Assembly (NCBI GenBank): GCA_041651095.1
Contig: JBAZJV010000006.1
Location: forward strand, 8,986-72,985
Origin: Patescibacteria group bacterium
Lineage (GTDB): Bacteria > Patescibacteriota > Patescibacteriia > Patescibacteriales > UBA12465
DNA: 64,000 nt
Reading direction: 5' to 3'
Position 1 is the stretch's first letter. Each line of letters begins with the position of its first letter. The notes beneath the pieces were generated by a model. The model made no database searches, was not told the origin of the DNA, and saw only the letters and a program-made list of their open reading frames with translations. The position numbers and the translations under genes are program-made. Positions 389 through 32,771 of this stretch are shown here, in pieces.

Positions 389-403
389 TAATTTATAAAA
401 TAT

Positions 404-2133: not shown

Positions 2134-2158
2134 GGCCCGGCTATCGCCGGGTCTTTTT
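2134..2158 (+). terminator. rho-independent terminator candidate
   Basis: GGCCCGGC-tatc-GCCGGGTC stem (one G.U pair) followed by TTTTT, 45 nt after the stop of the 561-aa ORF. Confidence 0.6.
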
Positions 2159-2250
2159 ATTTTATAATTTTAAGATTCCAGTCCCGCCTTTATACGCAAA
2201 ATCGCGTATTTTAGATATTTTTAGCTAAAAACAAACAAAAAATTAATATT

Positions 2251-2310
2251 ATGTTAACTATTGATTATTTAGTTAACATATGTTAATATATAAATATATG
2301 ATGTTAACAT
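2251..2310. promoter_or_regulatory. array of ATGTTAA half-sites (candidate operator of the HTH-Doc operon)
   Basis: ATGTTAAC at 2251-2258. 14-bp perfect palindrome TTAACATATGTTAA at 2273-2286. 10-bp perfect palindrome ATGTTAACAT at 2301-2310, 7 nt before the ATG at 2317. Confidence 0.5.
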
Positions 2311-2316
2311 GAAAAT

Positions 2317-2589
2317 ATGAAAAATATAAATAATCAAAATCAAAACTTTTTAACAGTAAAACAGTTGGCCGATATTTTAGGCATAAGCCGTATTGCCGTT
2401 TTTAATAAAATAAAAAAAGGACAACTGATGGCGGCAAAAGCCGGTAAAACTTATCTAATTCCGAAGGACCAATTAACCGGCATCATTAATAATAATCTGT
2501 CTGAAGAAGAAAAAGTAAAAATTAAAAAAGGGGTCAGCAAGGTCATTCGTGATTACGGCGAAACTTTAAAGATGCTAGGCAAAGAATAA
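2317..2589 (+). CDS. excisionase/MerR-type helix-turn-helix DNA-binding protein, putative antitoxin
   Basis: The N-terminus LTVKQLADILGISRIAVFNKIKKGQL...YLIP resembles the excisionase-family HTH. The stop lies 1 nt before the Doc-like gene. The C-terminal tail is charged. Confidence 0.7.
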   Translation: MKNINNQNQNFLTVKQLADILGISRIAVFNKIKKGQLMAAKAGKTYLIPKDQLTGIINNNLSEEEKVKIKKGVSKVIRDYGETLKMLGKE

Positions 2590-2590
2590 T

Positions 2591-3022
2591 ATGGTTAAAC
2601 CAATAACTTTGGAAAAAATACAATATATCGCTTTCTCTTTAGCCAAGGATACCTTAGAGTGGGACGAACCGATTCCTCCTTTCGAATCTCGCCTTCCTAA
2701 TATATTAGAGAGTTGTGCTGCGACCCCATTCCAAAGATTTAATAAAAAATCATTATATCTCGGCCTGATCGGCAAAGGGGCGATTTTGTTTTACTTATTA
2801 ATAAAAAATCATCCTTTTCAAAATGGAAATAAACGGATTGCGGTTACCTCGCTTTTAGTTTTTCTTTACATTAATGATAAATGGCTAAAGGTAGACTCCA
2901 AAGAGTTATATAATTTTTCTGTTTGGATCGCGCAAAGTCCGCCTAAATTAAAACAAGAAGTTATTAAAGCGATTGAAAGATTTATTAAAACTTATTTAGT
3001 AGATTTTGAACCCACTCAATAG
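2591..3022 (+). CDS. doc: Fic/Doc family protein, Doc (death-on-curing) type toxin
   Basis: The motif HPFQNGNKRIA matches the Doc-type variant HxFx(D/N)(A/G)NKR of the Fic motif. The 143-aa size and tight coupling to an upstream small DNA-binding gene also fit. Confidence 0.8.
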   Translation: MVKPITLEKIQYIAFSLAKDTLEWDEPIPPFESRLPNILESCAATPFQRFNKKSLYLGLIGKGAILFYLLIKNHPFQNGNKRIAVTSLLVFLYINDKWLKVDSKELYNFSVWIAQSPPKLKQEVIKAIERFIKTYLVDFEPTQ

Positions 3023-3032
3023 ATTGAGCACC

Positions 3033-3060
3033 AAAAAGACCCCAATTGAGGAGTCTTTTT
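3033..3060. terminator. bidirectional hairpin terminator candidate
   Basis: An imperfect AGACCCC...GAGGAGTCT stem with A5 before and T5 after, between the convergent doc gene and tRNA-Glu. Confidence 0.45.
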
Positions 3061-3066
3061 ATTTTG

Positions 3067-3138
3067 TAGTCCCTAGGGGAATCGAACCCCTCTTACCAGG
3101 ATGAGAACCTGGCGTCCTAGCCGATAGACGAAGGGACC
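3067..3138 (-). tRNA. tRNA-Glu (anticodon CUC)
   Basis: The reverse complement folds as a cloverleaf: acceptor GGTCCCT/AGGGACT, anticodon stem CCAGG/CCTGG, loop TTCTCAT, T-arm AGGGG-TTCGATT-CCCCT. No encoded CCA. Confidence 0.85.
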
Positions 3139-3176
3139 ATCAATTATCCGTATTTATGCTTAATTCGTATCTATGC

Positions 3177-4136
3177 TTAGTGCAGTATCTGGCCGATCAA
3201 AGCGCTATGGCCGCGCTTAAATTCTTCCGCCGAGAGCGGCTTGCCGCCGGCCATTTGTAATCTTAATATACTGAGCGCCGCTTGTCCACACTGGACCAGT
3301 AATTTCCCGTCGCTCAGGAACATTTCTCCGATTTGATGATTGGCGCTGCCGATTGGTTCGCGCTCGACGGACAAGATTTTCAATGATTTACCGTCCGGGG
3401 AAACCGTATAACTGCCCGGCCAGGGATCATAAGCGCGAACTTGGCGCTCTATCTCTATTGCCGGTTTCGACCAATCAATGCGGCCGTCCGTTTTATTCAG
3501 GATTTTTACGTAACTGGCTCGGCTTTCATCCTGCGCTTGCGGCTTGATCTTCCCCTGGACGAAGTCCTTAATGGTTGGAATCAACTCCTTAGCGCCGAGC
3601 TCGGCTAGCCGGTCATGCAGGTCGGACAGGGTTTCGCGGCCGGATAATTTTATCTTAGCTTGCCGTAAAATCGGGCCGGTGTCAAGGCCGGCGTCTATTT
3701 GCATAATCGTCACGCCGGTTTCGGCGTCACCGTTCAAGATCGGCGCGTTCAGGCAGCTGGCCCCGCGGTATTTCGGCAAGAGCGAAGCATGGACGTTCAG
3801 GCAGCCGTATTCGGGAATAGTTAATATTTCCGGCGGGATTATTTTGCCGTAAGCGATGACGATGATCAGATCTGGTTGCAGGTCTCGGATAGCCTGGGTA
3901 GCCGTCTTAATCTTAGCCGGCTGGAAAACCGGGATCTGGTGCTGCTCGGCCAATCGTTTTATCGGCGGCGGAGTAAGGGCTTGTCGCCGGCCGACCGGCT
4001 TATCGGCCTGAGTAAAAACGGCGGCCAGTTCAAAAGACGGCTCATCCAAGAGAGCTTGCAAGCCGGGGCAGGCGAATTCCGGCGTGCCCATGAAAATCAG
4101 GCGTAACTTTTTATCGGCGAGGCGCGTTGATGGCAT
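3177..4136 (-). CDS. fmt: methionyl-tRNA formyltransferase
   Basis: 319 aa. The N-terminus reads RLIFMGTPEFA. The motifs NVHASLLPKYRGA and PIxxG are present, together with the C-terminal Fmt domain. Confidence 0.9.
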   Translation of the reverse strand: MPSTRLADKKLRLIFMGTPEFACPGLQALLDEPSFELAAVFTQADKPVGRRQALTPPPIKRLAEQHQIPVFQPAKIKTATQAIRDLQPDLIIVIAYGKIIPPEILTIPEYGCLNVHASLLPKYRGASCLNAPILNGDAETGVTIMQIDAGLDTGPILRQAKIKLSGRETLSDLHDRLAELGAKELIPTIKDFVQGKIKPQAQDESRASYVKILNKTDGRIDWSKPAIEIERQVRAYDPWPGSYTVSPDGKSLKILSVEREPIGSANHQIGEMFLSDGKLLVQCGQAALSILRLQMAGGKPLSAEEFKRGHSALIGQILH

Positions 4137-8139: not shown

Positions 8140-8196
8140 TTGAGCATTAATTAAGCTAGTTCGTTTAACAAATCATTCATTAAATTGGGAGTTATC

Positions 8197-8760
8197 ATGA
8201 ATAAGCCATCTTTTAAGCAGTTTTTCGGTCTTTTCCTGAAATGGGCGGCGGTTAATCTTATCTTTGTTGCCATAACTGTTATTTCGGCTGGCTGGTCTTC
8301 ATTGCACCATTTTTACTTTACTATCCCGTCCGCCGGCCTGATCTACTTGATTATCTACGGTTTCTGGCACAGCAATCGCAAAGGTTTAATTTTTTCTTTA
8401 ACCTTTGTTATCTCCGGCATGTTGGCAATGTTCATGGGTGGTATCGCCAGTCTGGAAATTTCGCATTACGTTATGGTTAATCAAGCTATCATTTTTAGCG
8501 CCGTATTAATGATTCATGGCTTTAATAAGGAAAAGCCGGTTCTGATAAGCGATGCGTTAATCATGATAGCTTTGGCCGCAATTTTTGGCGGTATCGGCTA
8601 CCTATACATTGCCGAAGATTTATTCGGCGCATTGCGTATCGTTACCATACTCGGTTATGGTTCCGCCCTGGCTTTTTTGATCTTAATCGGCGGTTTTACC
8701 TATTTATTAAAACCGTTGCTCCGCTTCATGTTTGGAATCAAAAAATCCGGCGCGGCCTAA
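8197..8760 (+). CDS. hypothetical multi-pass membrane protein
   Basis: ORF track starts at TTG 8185. ATG 8197 has GGGAG (8187-8191) 5 nt upstream. About 6 hydrophobic segments. The gene is A/T-richer than its neighbours. Confidence 0.55.
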   Translation: MNKPSFKQFFGLFLKWAAVNLIFVAITVISAGWSSLHHFYFTIPSAGLIYLIIYGFWHSNRKGLIFSLTFVISGMLAMFMGGIASLEISHYVMVNQAIIFSAVLMIHGFNKEKPVLISDALIMIALAAIFGGIGYLYIAEDLFGALRIVTILGYGSALAFLILIGGFTYLLKPLLRFMFGIKKSGAA

Positions 8761-8818: not shown

Positions 8819-11458
8819 TCAACCGTTGACTTTCAGGACTAAGACTTCCTTTTCGCCTAAATCGATCCGGACCTTGTCGCCCTCCTTTATTTTGCCTTCG
8901 ATTATTTCGAGCGCCAGTTCGTCCAGGATCATGGTTTGGATGATGCGTTTCAAGGGGCGGGCGCCGTAAGTGATGTCATAACCTTTTTCAGCGAGCAGTT
9001 TTTTGATTTTTGGGTTGATCTTAACCAGGATATTCTTATTGCCCAGGCGTTTCTCGACTTTAAGCATCTCCAGGTCGACGATCTTTTCTAAGGCCAGCGG
9101 CGTCAGGCTTTGGAAGAGCACGATCTCGTCGATGCGGTTCAGAAATTCCAGCTTGAAATGGTTCTTGAGGATCTTGTCGATTTTTTCTTTCATCTCCGTG
9201 GTGCGCAGGCGGTTAGCCTGGACTTGGTCGCTGGCATCGCTGAAGCCGATGGAGTATTGCTTGATGATCTCGTTGCCCAAATTGGAAGTCATTATCACGA
9301 TGGTGTTCTTGAAATTGACGACGCGGCCTTTGGAATCGGTCAGGCGGCCGTCGTCTAAGATCTGCAGCAGCATATTGAACATGTCCGGATGCGCTTTTTC
9401 GATCTCATCGAAGAGCACGACGGAATAGGGATGGCGCCGGACGCGATCGGTCAGCTGGCCGCCTTCGTCATAGCCGACATAGCCGGGCGGCGAACCGATC
9501 AGCTTGGCCACGCTGTGCTTTTCCATATATTCGCTCATGTCCAGGCGGATCAGGGCTTTCTCGTCGTCAAAAATGAATTTGGCCAGAGCTTTCGCCAGCT
9601 CAGTCTTGCCGACGCCGGTCGGACCGACGAAGAGGAAGGAGCCGATGGGTTTCTTTTCTTCGTTGATGCCGGCGCGGCTGCGGCGCAAAGCATTGGCGAC
9701 CGCTTTTATCGCTTCGTCCTGGCCGACCACTTCCTGGCTGAGCGCGGTTTCGGCGCCGCTGAGCTTATGGATCTCGTCCTGCAGCATCCGGTTGACCGGA
9801 ATGCCGGTCCAGCGGGCCACGACCTTGGCGATGTCTTCCTCGTCGACTTCTTCTTTCAAGATCCGCTGGCCCTTCTTCTGGATCTTGATCAATTCTTCTT
9901 GGGATTTTTTGATCTTGCTTTCCAGTTCGGGAATCAGGCCGTACTTGATCTTGGCTACTTCGGTCAGGTCGGCGCCTTGGCGCTGGGCGATTTCCGCTTT
10001 TATTTTCAGGTCTTCGATCTCTTTTTTGGAATTGCGGATTTGGGAAATTATGGACTTTTCATTGTTCCAATGCAGTTCCAGCTGGTCCGCCTTTTCTTTC
10101 AGTTTGGCCAGTTCGGCGTTTAAGGCCCGCAACCGCGGGGAGCGCTTGGCCGCGGTCATGAGGCCGGCCTTGTTCAGTTCCAACTGGTTGATGCGGCGCT
10201 TTAATTGGTCCAGTTCGTCGGGCATGGAATCTATCTCCATGCGCAGGGAAGAAGTCGCTTCGTCAATCAGGTCGACGGCCTTGTCCGGCAGATAGCGGTC
10301 GCTGATGTAGCGGTTGGATAGCTTGGCCGCGGCGACCAGGGCATTATCGGTTATTCTCACGCCGTGGTGAACCTCATATTTTTCCTTGATGCCGCGCAGC
10401 ATGCTGATGGTATCGTCGACGTTCGGTTCGTTGACCAGGATCGGCTGGAAGCGGCGTTCCAGGGCCGCGTCCTTCTCGATGTATTTCTGGTATTCCTTGG
10501 TCGTGGTCGCGCCGATGGTCCGGAGTTCGCCGCGAGCGAGCGCCGGTTTGAGCATATTGGAGGCGTCCATGGAGCCTTCGGAAGCGCCGGCGCCGATGAG
10601 CGTGTGCAGTTCGTCAATAAACAGGATGATACGGCCGCTCTGCGACTTTACTTCCTTTAAGACCGCTTTCAGGCGGTCCTCAAATTCGCCGCGGAATTTG
10701 GCCCCGGCGACCAGCGCGCCGAGGTCCAGAGTAACGATTTCCTTGTTCTTCAGATTTTCCGGCACGTCGCCGGCGATGATGCGCTGGGCCAGACCTTCGA
10801 CGATCGCCGTCTTGCCGGTACCGGCTTCGCCGATGAGCACCGGATTATTCTTGGTCCGGCGCAAGAGGACCTGCATGATCCGGCGGATTTCCTGGTCCCG
10901 GCCGACGACCGGATCCAATTTTTCCTGGCGGGCCAGTTCGGTCAGGTTGGTCGTATATTTCTCCAGCACCTTATACTTATTTTCCGGGAACGGATCATTA
11001 ATCGTCTGGCTGCCGCGCAGCTCTTTCAAGATATTCTTGACCGCCTGGTATTCGACGCGAAAATTCAGGAGGACGCTCTGGGCGGGGGAGGGCACGCCGA
11101 TGAGCGCCAAGAGGATGTGCTCGGTGGAAATGAATTCATCATTCATGCCGTCCGCTTCCTTCTGGGCGCGTTCTAGGATCAAAGCGGTTTCCGCCGTGCC
11201 GGAAACAGCCTGCACCGGACCGACGCCGCGGCTGACTTTCACCCGCGGCAGTTTTTTGATCTCGTTAATGGTATACGCCTCCATGATTTCCGGATCGATT
11301 TTCATCTTTTCCAAAATCGGCTTGATCAGGCTCTCGTTCTGCTCCAAAAGCGCCAGGAGGATGTGCAGCGCTTCAATATTGGGCTGGCCGTAGGAAGCGG
11401 CCAGCATCTGCGAATTGATGATGGCTTCCTGCGATTTATCGGTAAATTTATTGAACAT
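8819..11458 (-). CDS. clpB: ATP-dependent chaperone ClpB
   Basis: 879 aa. Clp_N repeats. NBD1 has [15 protein letters not shown] and FIDELHTL, followed by a long coiled-coil middle domain. NBD2 has [15 protein letters not shown] and [11 protein letters not shown]. Confidence 0.95.
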
Positions 11459-11487: not shown

Positions 11488-11514
11488 TTAGCACTCTTAT
11501 TATTAGAGTGCTAA
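11488..11514. promoter_or_regulatory. CIRCE element (HrcA operator)
   Basis: TTAGCACTC-ttattatta-GAGTGCTAA is a perfect match to the consensus TTAGCACTC-N9-GAGTGCTAA. It lies 30 nt upstream of the clpB start. Confidence 0.85.
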
Positions 11515-11519: not shown

Positions 11520-11548
11520 ATGATAATATAAGCCTTATCAGTTGTCAA
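11520..11548 (-). promoter_or_regulatory. clpB promoter candidate
   Basis: The minus strand reads TTGACA (11548-11543), 17-nt spacer, TATCAT (11525-11520). CIRCE begins 6 nt downstream of the -10. Confidence 0.5.
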
Positions 11549-11612
11549 TCAAGGAACGATTATGTTATTATATTAAAGTAAAAATATCTTTATTTTTAGC
11601 CGACTAAGCTCC

Positions 11613-11978
11613 ATGTTAAATCATAATTTCCTGACTTATAGCGTTCAGATTATTATCCAGATTTTAGGAGAAATCCTATATTTTCCGGTTTGGTGGTATA
11701 CGGTCGGTTTTGGGCGTTTGGTCAAAGGCGCTTGGCGCTTCTGGCGGAATCAGGAGCAGATCCTCGGTTTCAGCGTCTGGCTGAAGAATTTATTCGTGCC
11801 CATGTACGGCCAACGTGATTTTGCCGGCCGGCTCATCAGCTTTGTAATACGCCTGGTCCAGGTAATTTTTCGCGGCGTGATCTTATTAGCCTGGCTAGCT
11901 GCTCTATTAGTACTGTTCTTGTCGTGGTTGGCCTTGCCGCTCACTCTGCTGTTTATTACGGCTTGGCAGTTTAAATAA
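11613..11978 (+). CDS. hypothetical membrane protein
   Basis: 121 aa with W/F-rich hydrophobic segments. It ends 15 nt before the Clp-like gene, so co-transcription is likely. Confidence 0.5.
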   Translation: MLNHNFLTYSVQIIIQILGEILYFPVWWYTVGFGRLVKGAWRFWRNQEQILGFSVWLKNLFVPMYGQRDFAGRLISFVIRLVQVIFRGVILLAWLAALLVLFLSWLALPLTLLFITAWQFK

Positions 11979-11993
11979 GCATTACCGGTAAAT

Positions 11994-14675
11994 ATGGAGG
12001 AAGAAGTCATCACTTTCACCGAAGAACAGAACAGCGGCGGGCGCGGCGCCTGGTTTTCCGGCCGCTTCTTATTTTGGGGCGCGACTATTAAGCGTTCTCT
12101 TATTGCTTTAGCTCGGCTGCGGGGAAAGATCGACCGAGTGGCCGCCGTCTTGGCCTGGTTAGTGGTGTTCGCCGGCTGGCTGGCTTTCGGCGTCTGGTTG
12201 GCCAATAACAGCGCGATCTGGCTGAAACGGCCGCTCAGCCTGCTGTTTTTCTGGAAGGAATTTGATCCGCTGATTCTGATTTTTCTGCTGTCCTTATGGG
12301 TCGATATGTTCCTGTTCTACCACCATAGCCAGAATCGGGCGGCGGCTCGCAAGATCAATTATCGCTTGTTTAAGGCTGATGATAAGCGGCCGGCCCGCGG
12401 TTCCAAAAAATATAACGTCGCGCTGGCTTATAGCGCGGCGGCCCGGCGAGCGGTCGAAGACGCCTATGTGCTGGCCAATAAGCTGCGCCAGTCCGAGGTT
12501 CGCGTCATCCATCTGTTCCGCATCCTTTTGAAAGACAAAGAAATCCAAAGCCTGTTCATCCGCCTGAATGTCGATGCCAAGAGACTGGTGGAAACGGTCG
12601 ATCGCCATCTGGTCAAGCCCCAGGACGCGCCAACCCGGGGACACATCGGTCTGGCCCCCGTCTTGCAGGAGGCCTTAACCCTGGCTTTTATCGACGCTTA
12701 TCGCCTGAAACAGGACAGCGTCGATGCTTTGAACATCATCCTGTTCTGCTATGACCGGGACCCGCTCTTAGCCGAAGTGCTCTATGATCTGGAAATCGAT
12801 CAGGACAAGATCAAAAATACCGTCGCCTGGTTCCGCGTCAACCGGCGTTTGGCTGATAATTACCGCCGTTACCGCCGGCTGGCGATCCTGAAGCCCGGCA
12901 ATAACATGAACCGGTCCTATACGGCCATCGCGACGCCGACTTTGGATCACTTTTCTCATGATCTGACGGTCAGCGCCAAGTACGGCGGCCTGGAAATCTG
13001 CGTCGGCCGGGATAAAGAGATCAATACTATTTTTGAATCGTTCACCGGCGGCCATAACGGCGTGCTTCTGGTCGGTCCGGTCGGCGTCGGCCGGAGCGCG
13101 ATCGTCGAAGGCTTGGCGCAGCTCATGGTGGAAGAAAACGTGCCGGAATTTTTGAAAGACAAGCGCCTGGTGGAGCTTGACGTGCCGCGCCTGGTCGCCG
13201 GCGCTAACGCCAGCGAAGCGGAAGCCCGGCTGCTTAATGCTATCAGCGAAGTCAGCCGTTCCGGGAACATCATTTTATATCTGGACAATATTGAGAATAT
13301 CATCGGCATCAGCGCCGGCGCCCAGGAAAGCCTGGACTTGTCCGAAGTCTTGGCTGAGGCGATCAATCGCCGCCGCCTGTTCTGCCTCGGCTCGGCGACT
13401 ACGGAGAATTACGCCCGTTATGTGGAAAACAAGGCGCTCGGCAACGCTTTCACGACTATCGGCGTCAAAGAACCGGACGTCAACCAGACCATTCAAATCT
13501 TGGAGAGCAAGGTCGGTTTTCTGGAAGCGAAATATGATATTTACTTGCTTTATGGCGCCCTGGAACAATCAGTCCTGATGTCCGCCCGCTATCTGCATGA
13601 AAAGTGCTTGCCGCTTAAGGCGATCAATCTTCTGGAAAAGGCGGCTATGGCCGCCGCCAAGCGGGCCAAAAATAATCCGGCCGACTCCTTCTGCGGCCAG
13701 GCGGAAGTGGCCGCCGCGATCAGCGAGCTCACCGGCATCCCGGCCAGCAAGGTCACGGCTTCCGAAAGTCAGAAATTGCTCAATCTCGAAGCGGAGATCC
13801 ATCGGCGCCTGATTGATCAGGCGGAAGCGGTCAAGGCCGTGTCCGCCAGCCTGCGCCGCGCCCGCGCCGAATTAAAGGATAGCCAGCGGCCGATCGCCAG
13901 TTTCCTGTTCCTCGGCCCGACCGGCGTCGGCAAGACCGAACTGGCCAAAGCGGTCAGCGAAATCTATTTTGGCGACGAGGCTTATCTGATCCGGCTGGAC
14001 ATGAGCGAATATCAGACGACGGACAGCATTCCCAAGATGATCGGCGACGCGTCCGGCACGCTCGGTTATCTGACCGAAGCGGTCCGCAAGAAACCGTTCT
14101 CCCTGGTCCTGCTCGATGAAGTGGAAAAGGCGCATCCGGATATCCTAAACCTTTTCCTGCAGCTGCTGGACGACGGCCGGCTGACGGACGGACAGGGAAG
14201 AACCATCAGTTTCGCCGAATCCATCATTATCGCCACCTCCAATATCGGCGCCGTCTACATTCAGGAACAGATCCGGGCGAACACCGCCCTGGCTTTGATC
14301 CGGCAGGAATTGATTGATAACCAGCTGAACAAATACATGCGGCCGGAGCTCATCAACCGTTTCGACGGCGTTATCGTCTTCAAGCCGCTCAGCGAAGAAG
14401 ACATCTATGCCGTCGCCACCCTGATGCTCAAGAAGATCAAGAAGAACCTGGCGGCGAAGGGAATCGGCCTGAAGGCCGACAAGGACGGCGTCGCCGTCCT
14501 GGCCAAGGCCGGCTATGATCCGAAATTCGGCGCCCGGCCGATGCGCCGTCTGCTGCAGGAGCGGGTCGAAGATATCGTGGCCAACAAGATCCTGAGCGGC
14601 GATCTCAAGCGTCGGGATACGGTCATTATCAATACCCAAGCCGATATTGAGATCGAGAAAGCGCCTGAATTATAG
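11994..14675 (+). CDS. membrane-anchored Clp/Hsp100-family AAA+ ATPase with degenerate NBD1
   Basis: 893 aa. Two N-terminal hydrophobic helices, then Clp_N repeats. NBD1 has GPVGVGRSAIVEGLA (K to R) and LYLDNIEN (DE to DN). NBD2 is intact, with [13 protein letters not shown] and LLDEVEKAHPD. No ClpB-type middle domain. Confidence 0.85.
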   Translation: MEEEVITFTEEQNSGGRGAWFSGRFLFWGATIKRSLIALARLRGKIDRVAAVLAWLVVFAGWLAFGVWLANNSAIWLKRPLSLLFFWKEFDPLILIFLLSLWVDMFLFYHHSQNRAAARKINYRLFKADDKRPARGSKKYNVALAYSAAARRAVEDAYVLANKLRQSEVRVIHLFRILLKDKEIQSLFIRLNVDAKRLVETVDRHLVKPQDAPTRGHIGLAPVLQEALTLAFIDAYRLKQDSVDALNIILFCYDRDPLLAEVLYDLEIDQDKIKNTVAWFRVNRRLADNYRRYRRLAILKPGNNMNRSYTAIATPTLDHFSHDLTVSAKYGGLEICVGRDKEINTIFESFTGGHNGVLLVGPVGVGRSAIVEGLAQLMVEENVPEFLKDKRLVELDVPRLVAGANASEAEARLLNAISEVSRSGNIILYLDNIENIIGISAGAQESLDLSEVLAEAINRRRLFCLGSATTENYARYVENKALGNAFTTIGVKEPDVNQTIQILESKVGFLEAKYDIYLLYGALEQSVLMSARYLHEKCLPLKAINLLEKAAMAAAKRAKNNPADSFCGQAEVAAAISELTGIPASKVTASESQKLLNLEAEIHRRLIDQAEAVKAVSASLRRARAELKDSQRPIASFLFLGPTGVGKTELAKAVSEIYFGDEAYLIRLDMSEYQTTDSIPKMIGDASGTLGYLTEAVRKKPFSLVLLDEVEKAHPDILNLFLQLLDDGRLTDGQGRTISFAESIIIATSNIGAVYIQEQIRANTALALIRQELIDNQLNKYMRPELINRFDGVIVFKPLSEEDIYAVATLMLKKIKKNLAAKGIGLKADKDGVAVLAKAGYDPKFGARPMRRLLQERVEDIVANKILSGDLKRRDTVIINTQADIEIEKAPEL

Positions 14676-14699: not shown

Positions 14700-15746
14700 A
14701 TGTTTTATTTTCTTATTTTTCTAGCGGCTTTCATTCTCTCGGCCGCCCTGACCTGGCTGGTCAGTCGGCTGGCGCTCCGTCTGGGAATCGTCGATCGACC
14801 GGATTCAGCCGATGCGCCCGGCCGCAAGATCCATAAGCGCTCGACGCCGCTCCTGGGCGGCTTGGCGATTTTTGGCGCTTATTTCAGCCTCTTGTTTATT
14901 TTTGCCGGCTATTTTCTGGCCGGCAATTTGCGCTGGTCGCACCTGGTCGGTTTTTTTCTGGGCGCGCTTATTATCGTTATCGGCGGCGGCCTGGATGATA
15001 AGTATGACTTGCCGCCGGCCCGGCAATTCGCCTTCCCGCTGCTGGCCGCCGCGGCCGTCATCGCCGGCGGCGTGGAAATCGCCAAACTGAGCAATCCCTT
15101 CGGCGGTTTTATTAATTTGAGCGCGCTCCCCTGGCTTTCGCCGGTTTTGATCCTCTTATGGCTTTTGGGCATGATGTATACGACCAAGCTCTTAGACGGC
15201 GTCGACGGGCTGGTGAGCGGCATCAGTGCCAGCGGCAGCTTCATTATTTTTTTATTTACCCTGACCACCCGCTATTATCAGCCGGACATCGCTTTCGCGG
15301 CCATCCTGTTGACCGGCGCGACCGTCGGCTTCCTGGTTTTTAATTGGCATCCGGCCAAGATTTTTTTGGGCGAGGGCGGTTCCTTGCTGCTCGGCTACAT
15401 CTTGGGCGTATTGGCGATAATTTCCGGCGGCAAGATCGCTATCGCTCTGCTCATCATGGGTATTCCCATAATGGATGTCGCCTGGACCATTATTCGCCGG
15501 CTGGCTGGCGGCCAGAATCCGTTCAAATTCGCCGACCGCCGCCACCTGCATCATCGCTTGCTGGCTCTGGGTTTGGGCCAGCGGGCGACGGTCCTGGTTT
15601 TCTGCGGCCTGGCCCTGCTTTTCGGTCTGGCCGGCCTTTTCCTGCAAAGCCGCGGCAAATTCTGGGCGCTGGTCGCGCTGGCCGGGCTGATGCTCCTGTG
15701 CGTTATTGGTTTCTGGTTCGCCGACCGCCGACATTCGCGCGTTTAA
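14700..15746 (+). CDS. glycosyltransferase family 4 (MraY/WecA-type polyprenyl-phosphate sugar-1-phosphate transferase)
   Basis: 348 aa with about 10 TM segments. Carries the motifs GGLDDKYDL, NLLDGVDGL and FLGEGGS. Confidence 0.8.
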   Translation: MFYFLIFLAAFILSAALTWLVSRLALRLGIVDRPDSADAPGRKIHKRSTPLLGGLAIFGAYFSLLFIFAGYFLAGNLRWSHLVGFFLGALIIVIGGGLDDKYDLPPARQFAFPLLAAAAVIAGGVEIAKLSNPFGGFINLSALPWLSPVLILLWLLGMMYTTKLLDGVDGLVSGISASGSFIIFLFTLTTRYYQPDIAFAAILLTGATVGFLVFNWHPAKIFLGEGGSLLLGYILGVLAIISGGKIAIALLIMGIPIMDVAWTIIRRLAGGQNPFKFADRRHLHHRLLALGLGQRATVLVFCGLALLFGLAGLFLQSRGKFWALVALAGLMLLCVIGFWFADRRHSRV

Positions 15747-15753
15747 TCGACTT

Positions 15754-16317
15754 ATGAAAAAACTACTGTTCCATATCTGTTGCGCGCCCTGCGCTACCTA
15801 TGTCAGCCGGGAACGCCTGGCGCCGCGCTATGAGCTGACTTGGTATTTTTATAATCCCAATCTGCTGTCGGCGGAAGAGTATGAACGCCGCCTGGACGCT
15901 GTCCGGCAAATGGCTGACCAGTTTTCCTGGCCGCTCATTATTGAGCCCTATGACCATGCGCCGTGGCAGGCCTTCGCCGACTGCCGGGCCGCGGATCCGG
16001 AGCGAGGCCTGCGCTGCCGGCTCTGTTATGCTGATCGGCTGGCGAGAACCGCCCGCCTGGCCCGGGAAAAAGGTTTTGACTTGTTCGGTACGAGCCTGGC
16101 GGTCAGTCCGTATAAGGATACGGCCGCCATTCTGAGCCTGGGACAGTCCTTGGCCGCCGCCGGCGGTCCGGCCTGGCTGGCCGAAGACCTGCAATCTGAC
16201 AATGCTTTCCGTAATAGCCAGGCTTTAGCCAGGGAACTGGGTTTATATCGCCAGAAATTTTGCGGCTGCGAATATTCTCTAAATCCTCAAACATGCGTTA
16301 TTCCCTCTGCCGTTTAA
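15754..16317 (+). CDS. queH: epoxyqueuosine reductase QueH (DUF208 family)
   Basis: Carries LLFHICCAPCATY, CRLCYADRL and FCGCEYS cysteine motifs. ATG 15754 is chosen because the ORF-track start at 15706 overlaps the upstream gene. Confidence 0.75.
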   Translation: MKKLLFHICCAPCATYVSRERLAPRYELTWYFYNPNLLSAEEYERRLDAVRQMADQFSWPLIIEPYDHAPWQAFADCRAADPERGLRCRLCYADRLARTARLAREKGFDLFGTSLAVSPYKDTAAILSLGQSLAAAGGPAWLAEDLQSDNAFRNSQALARELGLYRQKFCGCEYSLNPQTCVIPSAV

Positions 16318-17006
16318 ACATAATCGGTCGCAGCTTAGCCGTTATCTTAATTTTGACGGCGTTTTTATTCGTCCGGCCGGCTTTGACCAGGGCGGACGAT
16401 CAGCCGGATTCCGATCAGGACGGTTATCCGGATGCCCAGGAAATTAAGCATGGCTATTCGCCGTTCAACCCGGATCAGGTCAAGATTACCGAGAGCGATG
16501 CCGACACTGACGGGTTGAACGATTATTGGGAGTTGCAATTCAAGACCGATCCGTATAATCCGGATACGGACGGCGACGGTTATCCGGACGGCACGGAAGT
16601 GGATGCCGCCTATGATCCAAATGGCGCTGCCGCCAAATTGCCGGTCGGTCTCGAGATCAACCGGAAACAGCAGCAGCTGACTTATCTGGTCGGCGGCCAG
16701 GCTTGGAAAAAGTTTGCGGTTTCGACCGGCAAGGCCAGCATGCCCACCCCGGCCGGAACTTTCCAGGTGGTCAATAAGGTGCCTAAAGCCTGGTCCCGGG
16801 CCTATGGCCTCTGGATGCCTTATTGGCTGGGCTTGGATCGCGGCCAATTCGGCATCCACGAATTGCCGGTCTGGCCCAACGGTTATCGGGAGGGCGCCGA
16901 TCATCTGGGCAAAGCCGTTTCGCACGGCTGCATCCGCCTGGGTGTCGGCCCGGCCGAATATTTGTATGACCGGGTCGCGACCGGCACGCGCGTCGTTATA
17001 AAATAG
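16293..17006 (+). CDS. L,D-transpeptidase (YkuD domain) with thrombospondin type-3-like Ca-binding repeats
   Basis: Signal/TM segment, then DxDxDG repeats (DSDQDGYPD, DADTDGLND, DTDGDGYPD). The catalytic motif HGCIRL sits near the C-terminus. Confidence 0.8.
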   Translation: MRYSLCRLNIIGRSLAVILILTAFLFVRPALTRADDQPDSDQDGYPDAQEIKHGYSPFNPDQVKITESDADTDGLNDYWELQFKTDPYNPDTDGDGYPDGTEVDAAYDPNGAAAKLPVGLEINRKQQQLTYLVGGQAWKKFAVSTGKASMPTPAGTFQVVNKVPKAWSRAYGLWMPYWLGLDRGQFGIHELPVWPNGYREGADHLGKAVSHGCIRLGVGPAEYLYDRVATGTRVVIK

Positions 17007-17057
17007 CGGAATTTATGATATAATCATCGTAGCTGAATTAACGCTCAATTTTTGTCT

Positions 17058-19454
17058 ATGTCTAAAAAATTTTTTAGGCTCGTTCTGGCCCTTGCTCTGC
17101 CAATTTTAGCCATGAGCGGCTGCACCTTCCCCTGGCGGCAAGTCCGGCCAGCTCAGACGCCGGAAGTGGTACCATCCGCTCCGGCGGCGACCACGCCCGT
17201 CGGGGAGGCTAACACCAGCAAGTTGAAGAAATTTGACAATTATGAACAGCTGGCCGAGTTTTTGGCCGCCAATAATAATCCGGAAGCCAGCGTGACGCGC
17301 GATTTCATGATGAAAAATCTGCTGGCGCCGGCCGCTCAGAACACGGTGACCGGGTTGGCCGCCGCCGACAGCAGCACCGGCGGTAATGATCAGATCAATT
17401 CTCTGGGTTACTCGACGACCAATAATCAGGTCGCGGGCGTAGACGAACCCGATATCATCAAGACGGATGGCAAATATATTTACGCCCTGGTCCGCAAAGA
17501 GCTGTCTATCATCAAGGCGGCGCCGGCCGATGCCGCCGCTGTCGTCAGCCGCATAACTTTTAAATCGCGGCCGCAGGACATCTTTATCGATGGGAACTAT
17601 CTGGCCGTTTTCGGTTCGGATAATCAGATTTATGCGCAAGCGGTCTATGCCGGTTTCCGCCGCCAAAATCCTTATACTTTTTTCAAAGTCTTTGATCTGA
17701 GCGATCCGGCCAATCCGCGCCAGGTCCGCGATCTTAATTTTGAAGGCAATTATTATGACGCCCGCCTGGTCGGCGATTACGTCTATTTCCTGACCAACAC
17801 TTATAGCCGGTACCTGGCCAATGAGGCGCCGCTGCCGCGGCTCCTGGACAGCGGCCAGGTCGTAGCTAACAAATGCGAGGGCGTCCAGAAATGCTTTACG
17901 CCGGAAGTATTTTATTTCGACATCCCTTATGACAGCTATTCTTTTTTCAATATCGCGGCGATAAATATCAAGGATAACAGCGAGCCGCTCAGCGGCCAGT
18001 CCTATCTGCTCAGCAGCAGCCAGAACCTTTACGTTTCCCGCCAGAATATCTATATCACCTATACCCAGTATCTGAGCGAATATGATCTGGAACAGCAGGT
18101 TAAGCGGGAATTGCTTTATCCGCAGCTCTCGGCCGACGATCAGGCTAAAATCACGCAGATCGAAACGGCTCCCGGCTTTATCCTGAATAACCATGAAAAA
18201 CAAAGCAAGGTCGCGGCCGTCATTGACCATTATTTGGATTTCTTGAATGCCGCCGACCGAACGGCGCGGCAGACGGAGATCGACCAGGGCCTGAAAAACA
18301 AACTGATCCAACGAGCCAAAGAATTGGAAAAGACAGTGGTCCATAAGATCGGCATTAACGGCCGCCAACTGGTTTATCGAGCCATGGGCGAGGTGAACGG
18401 CCAGGCGTTGAACCAATTTTCCATGGACGAGGACGGCGACTATTTCCGGATCGCGACGACGCGCAGCCGGCAGTATTCGCGTTTTTCCGATCTCTCGGCC
18501 GATTCTTACAGCAACATCTACGTCCTGGATGCCAATCTGAAAACCATAGGCAGCTTGGAAAATTTGGCGACTACCGAAAAGATCTACGCCGCCCGTTTTC
18601 TGGGCGACCGGGTCTATCTGGTCACTTTCAAGCAGACCGACCCCTTATTCGTCATCAGCCTGAAAGACCCGGCTAAGCCGACCGTCTTGGGCGCTTTGAA
18701 GATTCCGGGCTTCTCCAACTATCTGCACCCGGTAACGCCGGACGGCTCGCAACTGCTCGGCCTGGGCCGCGCCACGGAAGAAACCGCTTCCGGCGGCGTC
18801 AAAATCAACGGGCTGAAACTGTCCTTGTTCGATTTCAGCGACCTGACCAAACCGAAGGAGCTGGACAGCTTCTTGATCGGTGACGCTTCCAGCGATTCGA
18901 TCGCTCTCAGCGACCATAAAGCTTTCTTATATTCGCCGGAACAGCGCCGGCTGGTGATTCCGGCCGTGCTGCGCGACAACGGCCGCCTGTCTTTCGCCGG
19001 CGCTCTGGCCTTTAACGTAGACAATAATCGCTTGACGCTGACCGGCCGGGTAGACCATTCCGCCGGCGGGCATTTTGCCCAGCCGGATTATTGGGACGGT
19101 TTCGATTACTATGACAATACGGTCAAGCGCAGCCTGTATATCGGCGACGATCTTTTCACTTTTTCCAATAAATTCTTGAAAGTTAACCGTTGGGGCGATT
19201 TGAGCGAGGTTAAGAGCCTGGAGTTGACTAGCGGCGGCGATGATTATATCATTACGACGCCGAACCGTCCGGAAAAATCCGCTTCGTCTTCGCCCGTTGC
19301 CGCCGGGGGGCCTGACACGACGACCAGCACGCCAGTTGCTTCAGACGGTACGCCGGATGCTGCGGCCGATACGCCGGAACTGCCGCCCGCATCGGATAAT
19401 GCCGGTCCGACCGCCGACTCTACTTCGACCGGCGCGACTTCCACTCAGCCTTAA
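17058..19454 (+). CDS. beta-propeller domain lipoprotein
   Basis: Lipobox LAMSGC. VDEPDIIKTDGKYIYAL is typical of the secreted beta-propeller family seen in archaea and CPR. The C-terminal tail is P/T/S/A-rich. Confidence 0.7.
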   Translation: MSKKFFRLVLALALPILAMSGCTFPWRQVRPAQTPEVVPSAPAATTPVGEANTSKLKKFDNYEQLAEFLAANNNPEASVTRDFMMKNLLAPAAQNTVTGLAAADSSTGGNDQINSLGYSTTNNQVAGVDEPDIIKTDGKYIYALVRKELSIIKAAPADAAAVVSRITFKSRPQDIFIDGNYLAVFGSDNQIYAQAVYAGFRRQNPYTFFKVFDLSDPANPRQVRDLNFEGNYYDARLVGDYVYFLTNTYSRYLANEAPLPRLLDSGQVVANKCEGVQKCFTPEVFYFDIPYDSYSFFNIAAINIKDNSEPLSGQSYLLSSSQNLYVSRQNIYITYTQYLSEYDLEQQVKRELLYPQLSADDQAKITQIETAPGFILNNHEKQSKVAAVIDHYLDFLNAADRTARQTEIDQGLKNKLIQRAKELEKTVVHKIGINGRQLVYRAMGEVNGQALNQFSMDEDGDYFRIATTRSRQYSRFSDLSADSYSNIYVLDANLKTIGSLENLATTEKIYAARFLGDRVYLVTFKQTDPLFVISLKDPAKPTVLGALKIPGFSNYLHPVTPDGSQLLGLGRATEETASGGVKINGLKLSLFDFSDLTKPKELDSFLIGDASSDSIALSDHKAFLYSPEQRRLVIPAVLRDNGRLSFAGALAFNVDNNRLTLTGRVDHSAGGHFAQPDYWDGFDYYDNTVKRSLYIGDDLFTFSNKFLKVNRWGDLSEVKSLELTSGGDDYIITTPNRPEKSASSSPVAAGGPDTTTSTPVASDGTPDAAADTPELPPASDNAGPTADSTSTGATSTQP

Positions 19455-32769: not shown

Positions 32770-32771
32770 TT

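Follow-up and report, generated by a model that had tools for sequence, protein, structure and literature searches.

What might a Clp/Hsp100-type ATPase do at the membrane if only one of its two rings can hydrolyse ATP? The question is raised by a locus from a Patescibacteria group bacterium, lying within a 64,000-nucleotide stretch of DNA (the window, by which the whole of the analysed stretch is meant), where the gene of a membrane-anchored ATPase of 893 residues follows that of a 121-aa partner. The ATPase is called ClpT here, a label coined for this work, and the partner is labelled p121. With regard to identity and architecture we are highly confident that ClpT is a two-ring class-I Clp/Hsp100 ATPase. 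The ClpT-p121 pair is real and its class is apparently undescribed; the initial annotation of this DNA had likewise seen in it no described Clp class, and no description was found here either. The features of the locus are collected in Table 1.

Table 1. Features of the ClpT-p121 locus, in positions of the window
Feature	Position	Strand	Basis or remark
clpB, 879 aa, divergently transcribed; full middle domain and canonical motifs	8819-11458	-	ORF, Pfam, NCBIfam
Perfect CIRCE element TTAGCACTC-N9-GAGTGCTAA	11488-11514	.	clpB leader; 0 expected by chance
Promoter-like site TTGTCA, 18 nt, TG-TATTAT	11542-11571	+	consensus scan only
p121, 121-aa partner ORF	11613-11978	+	ORF list
ClpT, 893-aa Clp/Hsp100-type ATPase, membrane-anchored	11994-14675	+	ORF, Pfam, NCBIfam, alignments
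N-terminal segment, aa 1-48, predicted cytoplasmic	11994-12137	+	conserved motif GGRGAWF.GRFLFWG
TM hairpin: TM1 aa 49-70, loop aa 71-91, TM2 aa 92-110	12138-12323	+	hydropathy, invariant columns, charge, AF2
Basic juxtamembrane linker, aa 111-147, K+R = 10, conserved KKINYRLF	12324-12434	+	low AF2 pLDDT
Clp N-domain, aa 148-297	12435-12884	+	weak Pfam, AF2, Foldseek
NBD1 (D1), degenerate	12981-13673	+	alignments, family column counts
D1 Walker A GPVGVGRS, K367R	13074-13097	+	alignment
D1 pore-loop remnant AGANASEAEA, no Tyr	13197-13226	+	alignment
D1 Walker B ILYLDN, E432N	13272-13289	+	alignment
D1 arginine-finger positions N484, A485	13443-13448	+	alignment
NBD2 (D2) and D2-small	13791-14672	+	Pfam, alignments, family counts
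D2 Walker A GPTGVGKT	13914-13937	+	alignment
D2 pore loop GDASGTLGYL, shortened, non-aromatic	14043-14072	+	alignment
D2 Walker B LVLLDE	14103-14120	+	alignment
WecA-like polyprenyl-phosphate sugar-phosphate transferase (Glycos_transf_4)	14700-15746	+	Pfam; co-oriented, 3' of ClpT

Architecture and membrane anchor of ClpT

ClpT is built, in order, of an N-terminal segment, a transmembrane hairpin, a basic linker, a Clp N-domain and the AAA+ modules D1 and D2. Pfam returns AAA_2 (2.6e-51), ClpB_D2-small (6.2e-22), AAA_lid_9 (1.3e-10) and a weak Clp_N match (3.9e-4, residues 157-205). Although the last of these is weak in Pfam, the Clp_N region called in the initial annotation is a genuine Clp N-domain by Foldseek, which pairs it with the N-domains of ClpC1, ClpB, Hsp104 and ClpA (target TM ~0.74-0.87, E to 6e-07); in the AlphaFold2 (AF2) model it comprises blocks of pLDDT 80-93. 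The combination that marks class I of Clp/Hsp100, namely a Clp N-domain and two AAA+ modules with AAA_2 and ClpB_D2-small, is therefore present in full, and the PDB sequence matches are to ClpC/ClpB (E ~1e-132).

ClpT falls short of the curated cutoffs of ClpB and ClpA. It scores 563.7 bits, in two stretches, against the ClpB model TIGR03346 (cutoff 1232.1) and 477.7 bits against the ClpA model TIGR02639 (cutoff 993.15), the latter model being collinear with ClpT in a single stretch (148-880 vs 3-733 of 734). Moreover, both NBDs of a ClpB are catalytically competent, whereas ClpT has an intact NBD2 and an NBD1 with K367R, E432N and RR to NA. By sequence, ClpT is ClpB/ClpC-derived, with two scores that point different ways on the source: NBD2 scores highest against the ClpB model (383.9 bits), and for the whole protein ClpC and ClpB structures give equal scores.

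The alignment to the neighbouring ClpB gives no counterpart in ClpT of the coiled-coil middle domain of ~120 residues; ClpB residues ~403-540 are unmatched, and ClpT 552-569 links the NBD1 lid straight to NBD2. The ~50-residue middle domain of ClpC type (MecA-type adaptor) is absent as well, the alignment breaking at S. aureus ClpC 411-460. A ClpP-docking motif of the kind that marks the ClpP partners ClpA, ClpC, ClpE and ClpX, [IVLM]G[FLM] within 45 residues after the TSN sensor-1, occurs in none of 74 ClpT orthologs, while the orthologs of the neighbouring ClpB carry IGF in 59 of 59. In these respects the initial annotation, which had described a protein divergent from clpB with neither a ClpB-type middle domain nor a ClpP-docking loop, is borne out, identity to ClpB being ~28% in NBD1 and 41% in NBD2.

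The two N-terminal hydrophobic helices that had also been described are upheld by hydropathy, charge, AF2 and conservation alike. The 19-residue Kyte-Doolittle profile peaks at 2.34 for the stretch that starts at residue 49 and at 2.04 for that starting at residue 90, and AF2 places helices at 34-71 and 92-118 (block pLDDT ~70-89). Lysine and arginine together number 8 ahead of TM1, 3 within the loop and 10 beyond TM2, a distribution that fits an N-in/C-in hairpin, the loop of which, predicted to be extracytoplasmic, bears a conserved P80 and LLFFW. A true start downstream of the helices had to be considered; it is not so, since 118 full-length homologs conserve both the hairpin and the sequence ahead of it. 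Distant family members have a DnaJ-type zinc ribbon at the N-terminus; in 60 of 80 of them a pair of CxxC motifs precedes TM1 within residues 1-75. This ribbon is lost in the ClpT of the window, the first 48 residues of which read as a cysteine-less remnant of the CxxCxGxG x2 type.

Two unequal rings

In alignments to both the neighbouring ClpB and S. aureus ClpC, LYLDNIE of ClpT lies opposite LFIDELH, and GPVGVGRS opposite the canonical Walker A. Since the two alignments agree, the replacement of the Walker A Lys (K to R) and of the Walker B Glu (E to N), both of which had been noted from the start, is real, and misalignment is excluded. The arginine fingers have also gone, ERRF having become GNAF (RR to NA), and the NBD1 pore motif KYRGEFE of ClpB reads NASEAEA in ClpT, with no tyrosine. 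Losses of the Walker B glutamate, the arginine fingers and the pore-loop tyrosine are family-wide, with N in place of the glutamate in 114 of the 118 close relatives. In contrast, the Walker A Lys is retained in 111 of the 118, and its change to R is a minor, recurrent family variant. That most relatives have the Walker A Lys and not the Walker B Glu argues for a first ring that is hydrolysis-dead and probably structural, with nucleotide binding probably kept. In other words, the initial verdict of an inactivated first ATPase stands for hydrolysis, but is too strong with regard to nucleotide binding.

NBD2 had been described as canonical, and in its ATP site it is so: the Walker A and B motifs, the arginine finger RPELINR and the sensor-2 GARPMRR are all present in ClpT, and across the family the finger (R/K)PE(L/F)xN(R/K) is found in 178 of 188 members and the GAR sensor-2 in 186. 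The description fails for the pore loop, which is short and non-aromatic. No aromatic is found there in 176 of the 188 members, and in 124 members the loop has 8 residues vs 13 in ClpB; at the Tyr position of GYVG, ClpT has a T in the HMMER alignment, while in the MAFFT alignment the motif is deleted. Across the close family the loop is nearly invariant as GD.DGTLGYL, and Leu690 or Tyr692 may therefore still grip substrate. Twelve distant members keep an APPGY or APPGF pore loop, from which it follows that the ancestral protein probably threaded.

The D2 pore tyrosine of ClpB/Hsp104 is required for threading. Without a pore-loop aromatic in either ring, processive threading or extraction by ClpT is doubtful. 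The loss of the aromatics is a negative argument; aromatic-free rings, such as p97 D1, can still touch substrate.

Against this background, the relation of ClpT to the known Clp proteins can be set out. With ClpB/Hsp104 it shares the N-domain, the two AAA+ modules and ClpB_D2-small, and classical ClpB also has no ClpP loop; it differs in lacking the middle domain and the pore tyrosines, in its apparently dead D1 and in the added membrane hairpin. With ClpA it shares a collinear N-D1-D2 arrangement without a middle domain, but it has neither the IGL ClpP-docking loop nor pore aromatics, its D1 is predicted to be dead, and it is anchored in the membrane. S. aureus ClpC is the best PDB sequence match (445 bits), and the N-domain fold is closest to that of ClpC1-NTD. 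ClpE has an N-terminal zinc-binding domain, which the N-terminal zinc ribbon of distant ClpT relatives recalls. From ClpC and ClpE, ClpT differs in having no short middle domain and no VGF loop, in its probably dead D1 and in its hairpin; moreover, the ribbon of the distant relatives, which ClpT has lost, belongs to the DnaJ CxxCxGxG type.

The gene pair, its neighbours and its family

As had been noted, the ATPase gene is preceded by that of a co-oriented 121-residue membrane protein, on which ORF, helices and hydropathy agree. p121 consists of two long helices (6-51 and 70-120 in an AF2 model of pLDDT 87.6), the first hydrophobic in its N-terminal half and the second with a strongly hydrophobic TM segment at its C-terminal end (residues 88-118). 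A basic tip, predicted to be cytoplasmic, bears the conserved motifs FPxWWY..G and PMYGQxD...R.IS, and the termini (HNF...) are conserved too. p121 has no Pfam or NCBIfam match and no structural relatives were found; a cofactor of AAA+ fold was considered and rejected, the AF2 model being a two-helix hairpin. Its homologs, named only 'hypothetical', form 313 clusters from Patescibacteria/Falkowbacteria and measure 120-149 aa, mostly 121-123, among the 120 matches listed.

Co-occurrence of the two genes across genomes, a check that the initial annotation had proposed, is complete: in all 76 loci whose flank is usable, the gene directly 5' of ClpT encodes a p121 homolog. Most of the gaps fall between -11 and +16 nt, a spacing that looks operonic. 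At all six distant loci the p121 position is taken by a gene of ~120-130 aa with no Pfam hit, for which homology is confirmed in three, the other neighbours differing.

The family includes at least 118 full-length homologs that are 59-78% identical to ClpT across its first 560 residues, which served as the query, and is present in 125 GTDB species; the N-terminal profile matches 392 clusters at 50% identity. Named ClpT members come from Patescibacteria, Parcubacteria, Falkowbacteria, Uhrbacteria and Kerfeldbacteria only, and among named members the conserved gene pair is so far seen only in Patescibacteria. The TM hairpin, the Clp_N domain, a D1 without its Walker B residue, an intact D2 ATP site and a p121-type gene 5' are found in the protein of the window and family-wide. 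Rough estimates of dN/dS, for which dS is saturated, are ~0.05-0.15 in every domain and ~0.07-0.11 in D1; all ClpT domains, D1 included, are thus under purifying selection.

On the 5' side lies clpB, which had been put ~500 nt away; from its start codon to the start of the 893-aa ORF is 536 nt. The gene adjoins in most of 80 close loci and, among the distant ones, in that from Kerfeldbacteria (L081), there on the other side, being non-adjacent in the other five of the six. It is best taken as context and not as a proven component of the system. The clpB product has an unusual insertion containing IGF. The promoter-like site lies 42 nt 5' of the p121 start codon, and the CIRCE element, sitting 5' of the -35 hexamer on the + strand, is not part of the predicted promoter of the pair.

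On the 3' side, the WecA-like gene begins 25 nt past the ClpT stop, with no terminator-like site between the two in a terminator scan. Its product scores 123.9 bits against the NCBIfam WecA model vs 63.7 against MraY, both under cutoff. The gene follows ClpT in all 74 loci that have enough flank; among the distant loci it is also present at L083, L084 and L085, and is not beside the pair in the other three (L081, L082 and L086). Genes further downstream keep their place in 65 and 51 of the 80 loci. Synteny in the close clade is thus high overall, and the WecA-like adjacency there is accordingly weak evidence.

Proposed function and competing explanations

From these features we infer a mechanism that is tentative as a whole, though quite possibly right, in which ClpT, independent of ClpP and close to the membrane, would work with p121 as a switch or remodeller driven by ATP. 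A putative ClpT hexamer would be tethered by twelve TM helices, its N-domain/D1 face to the membrane. D1 would be a nucleotide-stabilised, non-hydrolysing assembly ring, as are NSF-D2 and p97-D1, and D2 the sole ATPase, as predicted from sequence. The likeness to NSF D2 and p97 D1 is that one stacked ring does not hydrolyse and that the P-loop is kept in most ClpT members, probably for oligomer stability; NSF and p97 belong to other AAA+ clades, however, and the dead ring of ClpT, whose role is proposed, would be the membrane-proximal N-terminal one. ClpT could then act as an ATP-driven clamp or switch, in client binding and release or in local remodelling, at the cytoplasmic membrane face, contacting clients through its N-domain, the former zinc-ribbon segment at its N-terminus and the conserved tip that p121 is predicted to expose to the cytoplasm. 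Because there is no middle domain, no coupling to Hsp70 is expected, and because there is no docking loop, none to ClpP; lacking both, and the aromatic paddles, ClpT is probably not a processive unfoldase. Since the WecA-like operon partner is invariant or frequent, envelope-biogenesis membrane proteins would be the likely clients, although going from the architecture to a client and an output is conjectural.

Torsin is closest to Clp/Hsp100, and has no aromatic pore loops, an N-terminal hydrophobic membrane domain and transmembrane cofactors (PMC5425593). ClpT is also Clp-related, without aromatic pore loops and with an N-terminal hydrophobic membrane tether. The likeness to Torsin with LAP1/LULL1 (metazoan ER, nuclear envelope) is one of functional analogy only. 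Torsin is a luminal protein with one AAA+ module, and its arginine finger comes from the cofactor, whereas ClpT has two rings, is predicted to be cytoplasmic and has its own D2 finger. ClpT as a Torsin proper was rejected, given the two modules, the RPELINR finger and a p121 not of AAA+ fold; there is no Torsin among its PDB sequence hits. By analogy, ClpT and p121 might be a bacterial counterpart of Torsin and cofactor, a non-threading membrane-held ring in which D2 turnover would remodel or license envelope-biogenesis machinery, e.g. the WecA-like transferase; in so specific a form the proposal is unlikely. If true, it would mean a distinct, undescribed functional Hsp100 class across a large branch of the Patescibacteria.

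Of the competing explanations, a D2-powered extractase or dislocase, passing damaged or mislocalised membrane proteins through its channel with p121 as a recruiting or lipid-thinning adaptor, is doubtful but has a real chance. Its geometry would be FtsH-like, the N-terminal anchor bringing the entry face, formed by N-domain and D1, up to the membrane. FtsH and Msp1/ATAD1 likewise have an N-terminal TM anchor and a ring entry face against the cytoplasmic membrane side, but they are single-ring AAA proteins of the classical clade whose pore loops are aromatic and whose threading is proven, FtsH adding a protease domain, and homology to ClpT is limited to the AAA+ fold. The intact D2 ATP site, the retention of the Clp N-domain, known as a platform for substrates and adaptors, the strong conservation of the D2 loop in the close family and the aromatic loops of some distant members all accord with extraction. 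The aromatic missing from both rings and a D2 loop ~5 residues shorter do not, and without a protease partner loop the extracted proteins would have no obvious fate. Extraction of membrane proteins, as suggested initially, hence finds no sequence support in the form of threading.

Degenerate AAA+ paralogs often partner active ones, e.g. in Torsin-LAP1. ClpT could, by the same token, be a membrane tether or co-factor that recruits ClpB to the membrane or hetero-oligomerises with it there, passing aggregated or misinserted proteins near the membrane to a competent disaggregase and itself providing binding and regulation but not force. The frequent adjacency of clpB, the best score of NBD2 being against ClpB and the CIRCE heat-shock element of the clpB leader in the shared intergenic region all point this way. 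Most distant loci have no adjacent clpB, however, the CIRCE lies outside the predicted promoter of the pair, ClpT has no middle domain, its low identity to ClpB makes mixed rings unlikely, and the adjacency could merely reflect an old tandem duplication; the explanation is quite improbable.

Very unlikely indeed is a gated channel or translocase, in which six ClpT and six p121 hairpins (24 helices) would enclose a pore, coaxial with the AAA+ ring, that D2 gates or through which it moves folded cargo or a lipid-linked intermediate, on the pattern of Bcs1 or of HSP101-EXP2 in PTEX. Conservation of the outer loop (P80, LLFFW) and of the p121 termini does suggest a specific structure in the membrane or on its outer face, a lipid-carrier glycosyltransferase is encoded alongside, and Bcs1 is reported to be a membrane-anchored AAA protein that moves a folded protein across a membrane (PMC7994207). 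Against this, the pore in PTEX is met by the C-terminal ring and not by the N-terminal face, no structural relatives of p121 were found, and nothing in the sequence signals a hydrophilic pore lining.

Finally, that ClpT is a decaying, functionless ClpB/ClpC paralog, as the many lost catalytic and pore residues and the Walker A Lys that varies in some members might suggest, is effectively refuted by conservation over the full length, with few indels, in 125 species whose genomes are ~1 Mb or less and in 392 clusters, by the low dN/dS of every domain, saturated as dS is, by an invariant D2 ATP site and by a strictly conserved partner gene.

Class membership and membrane anchoring of ClpT

The 893-aa protein to which we give the working name ClpT belongs to the class-I Clp/Hsp100 superfamily. 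The Pfam families that it matches are AAA_2 (2.6e-51), ClpB_D2-small, AAA_lid_9 and, weakly, Clp_N; it is collinear with the ClpA model over a single stretch, and among solved structures it scores best with S. aureus ClpC (445 bits), followed by E. coli ClpB (435 bits). Every NCBIfam Clp equivalog cutoff lies far above its score (ClpB, 563.7 versus a cutoff of 1232 bits; ClpA, 477.7 versus 993; ClpV, 435 versus 885), and model and PDB scores favour neither ClpB nor ClpC descent decisively. In this regard, ClpT differs from ClpB in lacking the middle domain, two active nucleotide-binding domains (NBDs), the pore tyrosines and a score at the model cutoff, from ClpA in lacking the IGL loop and likewise such a score, and from ClpC in lacking the short middle domain and the VGF loop; nor does it share the Torsin hallmarks of a single module and an absent arginine finger. 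The initial annotation had remarked on the lack of a coiled-coil middle domain and of a ClpP-docking loop, and both absences hold: BLASTP against the neighbouring ClpB left the middle domain of the latter (~120 residues) with no counterpart in ClpT, and the (I/V/L)G(F/L) tripeptide is missing after the NBD2 sensor-1 (TSN) in ClpT and in all 74 orthologs. It had also regarded the protein as belonging to no described Clp class, with which our searches agree, in that a full-text literature search brought up no account of a membrane-anchored Clp of class I or of the ClpT family, and NCBIfam no curated model for a membrane-integral class-I Clp or for the pair formed by ClpT and p121, the small membrane protein encoded directly upstream. 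Database labels on the family are generic, either 'ATP-dependent Clp protease ATP-binding subunit (ClpC)' or 'Clp R domain-containing protein'.

Table. Positions in the window of ClpT, p121 and the surrounding features
Feature	Position	Strand	Remark
ORF without family match	404-2089		in low-GC stretch
191-aa multi-helix hydrophobic ORF	8185-8760	+	between clpB and the upstream gene
clpB ORF, 879 aa	8819-11458	-	transcribed divergently from p121-ClpT
CIRCE inverted repeat	11488-11514		in clpB leader
Promoter TTGACA...TATCAT	11548-11520	-	near-consensus
p121 ORF, 121 aa	11613-11978	+	ORF call
ClpT ORF, 893 aa	11994-14675	+	starts 15 nt past p121 ORF
WecA-like polyprenyl-phosphate sugar-phosphate transferase (Glycos_transf_4)	14700-15746	+	starts 25 nt past ClpT
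203-aa Cys-rich protein	15706-16317	+	overlaps end of the transferase gene
248-aa protein	16260-17006	+	acidic calcium-binding-type repeats
800-aa lipoprotein	17052-19454	+	PF09826 beta-propeller
ORF without family match	33058-34979		in low-GC stretch

The topology of ClpT was assessed from hydropathy, charge bias, AlphaFold and conservation, which together support the N-terminal membrane helices first noted from the sequence. Kyte-Doolittle averages over 19 residues have two maxima, one of 2.34 starting at residue 49 (VAAVLAWLVVFAGWLAFGV) and one of 2.04 starting at residue 90, and Lys plus Arg residues number eight ahead of TM1, three in the 21-residue loop and ten past TM2 (family means 8.7, 2.3 and 10.4). 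An AlphaFold2 model of the first 335 residues, built on a 21-sequence alignment, contains helices at 34-71 and 92-118 (block pLDDT ~70-89), beyond which lie a low-confidence basic linker and then a well-predicted N-domain that superposes on those of ClpC1, ClpB, Hsp104 and ClpA with target TM-scores of ~0.74-0.87. This pattern fits an N-in/C-in hairpin that would place the AAA+ rings in the cytoplasm. Conservation in all close homologs extends over the 48 residues that precede TM1 (with GGRGAWF.GRFLFWG), the loop between the helices on the extracytoplasmic side (P80, LLFFW) and a KKINYRLF motif beside the membrane, and the true start is therefore not downstream of the helices; indeed, a start-codon artefact is ruled out by the conservation of the N-terminal 48 residues and both helices in 118 homologs.

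Residues 1-560 as query gave at least 118 full-length homologs (~890-910 aa, 59-78% identity), the named ones carrying only the labels 'Patescibacteria group' or 'Candidatus Falkowbacteria', and a scan of GTDB, taking one genome per species and using family-specific N-terminal patterns, confirmed 125 relatives. The 335-residue N-terminal profile extends the family to 392 clusters (50% identity), of which 239 reach E <= 1e-10, and many are proteins of 870-960 aa matched from about profile position 15, TM region included; named distant members are from Uhrbacteria, Kerfeldbacteria, Parcubacteria and Patescibacteria. Some records are titled 'uncultured Gammaproteobacteria', and since their sequences are those of ordinary family members we infer that these titles are submission placeholders. 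Among 80 distant homologs (P0250-P0393), 60 carry two N-terminal CxxC motifs (e.g. L082:6001-8745), typically CxxCxGxG (e.g. CPTCHGRGR...CPDCHGAG) just ahead of an FxYWG motif and TM1, which from its motifs is a DnaJ-type zinc ribbon on the cytoplasmic side. In ClpT and its Falkowbacteria-type relatives the cysteines are lost and the flanking G.W(F).G.F.YW is kept. An origin in a defence island or mobile element was ruled out by conserved housekeeping synteny and by GC and GC3 in line with those of neighbouring genes.

The two ATPase rings

In the first ring, the Walker A motif GPVGVGRS aligns with GEAGTGKT of ClpB (K367R) and the Walker B motif ILYLDNIE with ILFIDELH (E432N), GNAF replaces the ERRF that holds the arginine-finger pair, and the pore loop reads AGANASEAEA. 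The NBD1 registers of the initial annotation recur in BLASTP against the neighbouring ClpB and in HMMER against ClpC, and the Arg and Asn substitutions, when checked as possible misalignments, fall in the same registers with MAFFT too, such that misalignment is ruled out. Across 118 close homologs Asn occupies the Walker B position in 114 and Asp does so in four, and neither an RR arginine-finger pair nor a pore-loop aromatic occurs in any. The Walker A residue, by comparison, is Lys in 111, Arg in six (ClpT included) and Gln in one, which rules out K-to-R as a hallmark of the family; the Arg variants are 68-74% identical to ClpT and a 78% relative carries Lys, so the R variants are not nearest relatives of ClpT and the change arose more than once. 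Of 76 distant full-length representatives, P0371 alone keeps the Walker B Glu (LLIDEIH), most retain the Walker A Lys, and RRF persists in a handful. With the Glu lost and the Lys mostly retained across the family, NBD1 is, on its motifs, a hydrolysis-dead ring, which in most members probably still binds nucleotide. Its dN/dS of 0.07-0.11, rough values with saturated dS (>1), is like that of NBD2 and argues for purifying selection.

The second ring had been called canonical, a description that stands for its ATP site and fails for its pore loop, which is shortened and has no aromatic. The ATP-site motifs are intact, GARPMRR included; of 188 members, 178 have the arginine-finger motif and 186 have GAR. 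The pore loop reads IGDASGTLGYLT, where E. coli ClpB has IGAPPGYVGYEEGGYLT. HMMER sets Thr689 of ClpT opposite the pore tyrosine and MAFFT deletes the PGYVG segment in ClpT, and in both alignments the aromatic-hydrophobic-Gly motif is left without its aromatic. The loop has eight residues in 124 members versus 13 in ClpB, and contains no aromatic residue in 176 of 188; APPGY or APPGF persists in twelve distant members. Pore-loop aromatics are, in other words, absent from both rings of ClpT. The loop is nonetheless nearly invariant in the close family (G688, G691, Y692 and L693 in 118/118, L690 in 113/118) and therefore has some role.

The p121 partner and possible modes of action

In 76 of 80 GTDB loci a p121 homolog lies directly upstream of ClpT and co-oriented with it, and as the other four end at or just before the ClpT start, the pair is intact in 76/76 informative loci. 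The distance from p121 stop to ClpT start is mostly -11 to +16 nt. In six distant loci (L081 and L082 from Kerfeldbacteria, L083 and L085 from Uhrbacteria, L084 and L086) the surroundings differ, with YidC, TGT, Pup-ligase-like, glycosyltransferase and pilin genes, and in all six a 121-130-aa gene without Pfam match abuts or overlaps the ClpT start; three of these, when aligned, share FPxWW(Y/F)..G and PMYG..D.....IS...R. On this gene order p121 appears to be an obligate partner gene of ClpT. Its family comprises 313 clusters, and relatives among the matches listed (120 of 313) are of 120-149 aa, mostly 121-123, and bear only the name 'hypothetical'. AlphaFold2 (52 sequences, pLDDT 87.6) predicts a pair of long helices running antiparallel (6-51 and 70-120); hydrophobicity is strong over residues 88-118 (Kyte-Doolittle up to 2.7) and moderate over 10-32, and the middle 55 residues hold nine Lys plus Arg. 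From the helices, the hydropathy and this charge pattern, p121 is likely an N-out/C-out hairpin with its conserved tip in the cytoplasm, where it would be adjacent to the N-terminal segment and N-domain of ClpT and could contact them. A fold search of the PDB gave nothing significant for p121 (best E = 3.4, with PspA/Vipp1-like hairpins at chance level).

Hsp100/Clp proteins are soluble threading machines: ClpA, ClpC, ClpE and ClpX feed ClpP, ClpB/Hsp104 disaggregate with Hsp70, and the pore-loop tyrosines of ClpB, Hsp104, ClpA and ClpX grip and translocate the polypeptide. ClpT is unlike these textbook cases, being membrane-integral, with a structural pseudo-ATPase ring, both tyrosine pore loops lost and a dedicated small membrane protein. 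From the architecture, motif states, conservation, operon structure and predicted topology established for the pair, a mechanism can be proposed in which twelve helices would tether a ClpT hexamer with its N-domain/D1 face toward the membrane, D1 (the NBD1 ring) would serve as a non-hydrolysing assembly ring, and D2 (NBD2) would be the only ATPase. Without a middle domain or docking loop, ClpT would be uncoupled from Hsp70 and from ClpP. Because the aromatic pore loops are lost in both rings, we tentatively favour, as the most likely mode, a clamp or switch at the membrane that is driven by ATP and non-processive and that would act, together with p121, on clients in the membrane or in envelope biogenesis; what these clients and the output are is conjecture. 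The idea that the Clp scaffold can serve purposes other than processive unfolding has until now drawn chiefly on eukaryotic Torsins; if ClpT is active, it would extend to bacteria. By analogy, Torsin with its transmembrane cofactors is the closest functional precedent for ClpT-p121: Torsins are the AAA+ proteins most like Clp/Hsp100, have no aromatic pore loops and carry an N-terminal hydrophobic membrane segment (PMC5425593).

An extractase that threads its clients by means of the non-canonical D2 loop is the next candidate, somewhat unlikely in our estimation. The near invariance of that loop in the close family speaks for it, as does the fact that rings free of aromatics, such as p97 D1, can still contact substrate; it is not adopted as the best explanation mainly because neither ring of ClpT has a pore-loop aromatic. 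The earlier suggestion that the protein might extract or remodel membrane proteins is retained only in part, extraction being disfavoured by the loss of these aromatics and a non-threading action at the membrane being kept as a proposal. That ClpT acts as a membrane tether or co-factor for ClpB is improbable, and a gated channel or Bcs1-like translocase very improbable indeed, while a decaying paralog is effectively excluded by the conservation data; some other mode of action takes up the rest of the probability.

Complete or near-complete assemblies with ClpT are of ~0.9-1 Mb, and as it is retained in such reduced genomes ClpT is probably important for envelope or membrane proteostasis in Patescibacteria, on which we know of almost no functional data. 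The family series amounts to a natural experiment in unfoldase conversion, with zinc ribbon, RRF arginine fingers and APPGY pore loop at one end, and at the other ClpT-like members without cysteines, arginine fingers or pore aromatics. ClpT should be expressible in E. coli, by which the main predictions become testable.

Neighbouring genes

The WecA-like gene downstream scores 123.9 bits against WecA and 63.7 against MraY in NCBIfam, each under its cutoff, and no terminator-like site lies between it and ClpT. It follows ClpT in 74/74 close loci with enough flank and in three of the six distant loci (L083-L085), touching or overlapping ClpT; this adjacency may reflect a functional link to cell-envelope glycopolymer synthesis. 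In most lineages only a few nucleotides separate the two genes, or they overlap. In L085 three GT2 glycosyltransferase genes come after it.

The clpB gene adjoins ClpT in most close loci, mainly divergently, lies downstream in Kerfeldbacteria L081 (9333-11906) and is missing from beside ClpT in the remaining five distant loci. Its product in the window aligns full-length with ClpB structures from M. tuberculosis, T. thermophilus and E. coli (~890-916 bits) and is a genuine ClpB whose middle domain is complete. NBD2 of this ClpB has an insertion of ~10 residues with an invariant IGF tripeptide, at the exact site of the ClpP-docking loop of ClpA and ClpC (IGL/VGF), which is also where the engineered 'BAP' variant of ClpB reportedly received the ClpA loop; IGF occurs in 59/59 ClpB orthologs of the close clade and is absent from Kerfeldbacteria ClpB. 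The protein could be a natural ClpP-coupled ClpB. No clpP was found by tblastn with an E. coli ClpP query in the 64-kb window and 80 locus flanks. The clpB leader holds a perfect CIRCE (HrcA operator) inverted repeat, TTAGCACTC-N9-GAGTGCTAA (0 expected by chance), just downstream of the minus-strand promoter, and upstream of, not within, the predicted p121-ClpT promoter; a loose CIRCE pattern is present in 24 of 80 related loci, nearly always right upstream of clpB.

The 191-aa ORF beside clpB (GC 0.42 versus 0.52 for the window) matches nothing in Pfam or NCBIfam, lacks homologs in the 80 related loci, and may be a lineage-specific insertion. Low GC (0.42-0.44 versus ~0.52-0.59 elsewhere) also marks positions 1-4000 and 32001-34000, where the ORFs without family match lie. 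In distant loci, a TGT (queuine tRNA-ribosyltransferase family) gene is found upstream of the pair, at a distance of a few genes, in L081, L083, L084 and L086, and a large CLIPPER/DUF11-repeat protein is encoded upstream in L081, L084, L085 and L086. The 203-aa protein of the window has no NCBIfam match, and the 248-aa protein matches CglD/MtsD weakly; towards its C terminus the sole NCBIfam matches, weak ones, are to models named 'hypothetical protein', and this region is taken as putatively YkuD-like. The lipoprotein beyond them combines its beta-propeller (E = 3e-142) with a low-complexity Pro/Thr/Ser/Ala tail. Of the 80 loci, 65 keep the 203-aa gene downstream and 51 the 248-aa gene.
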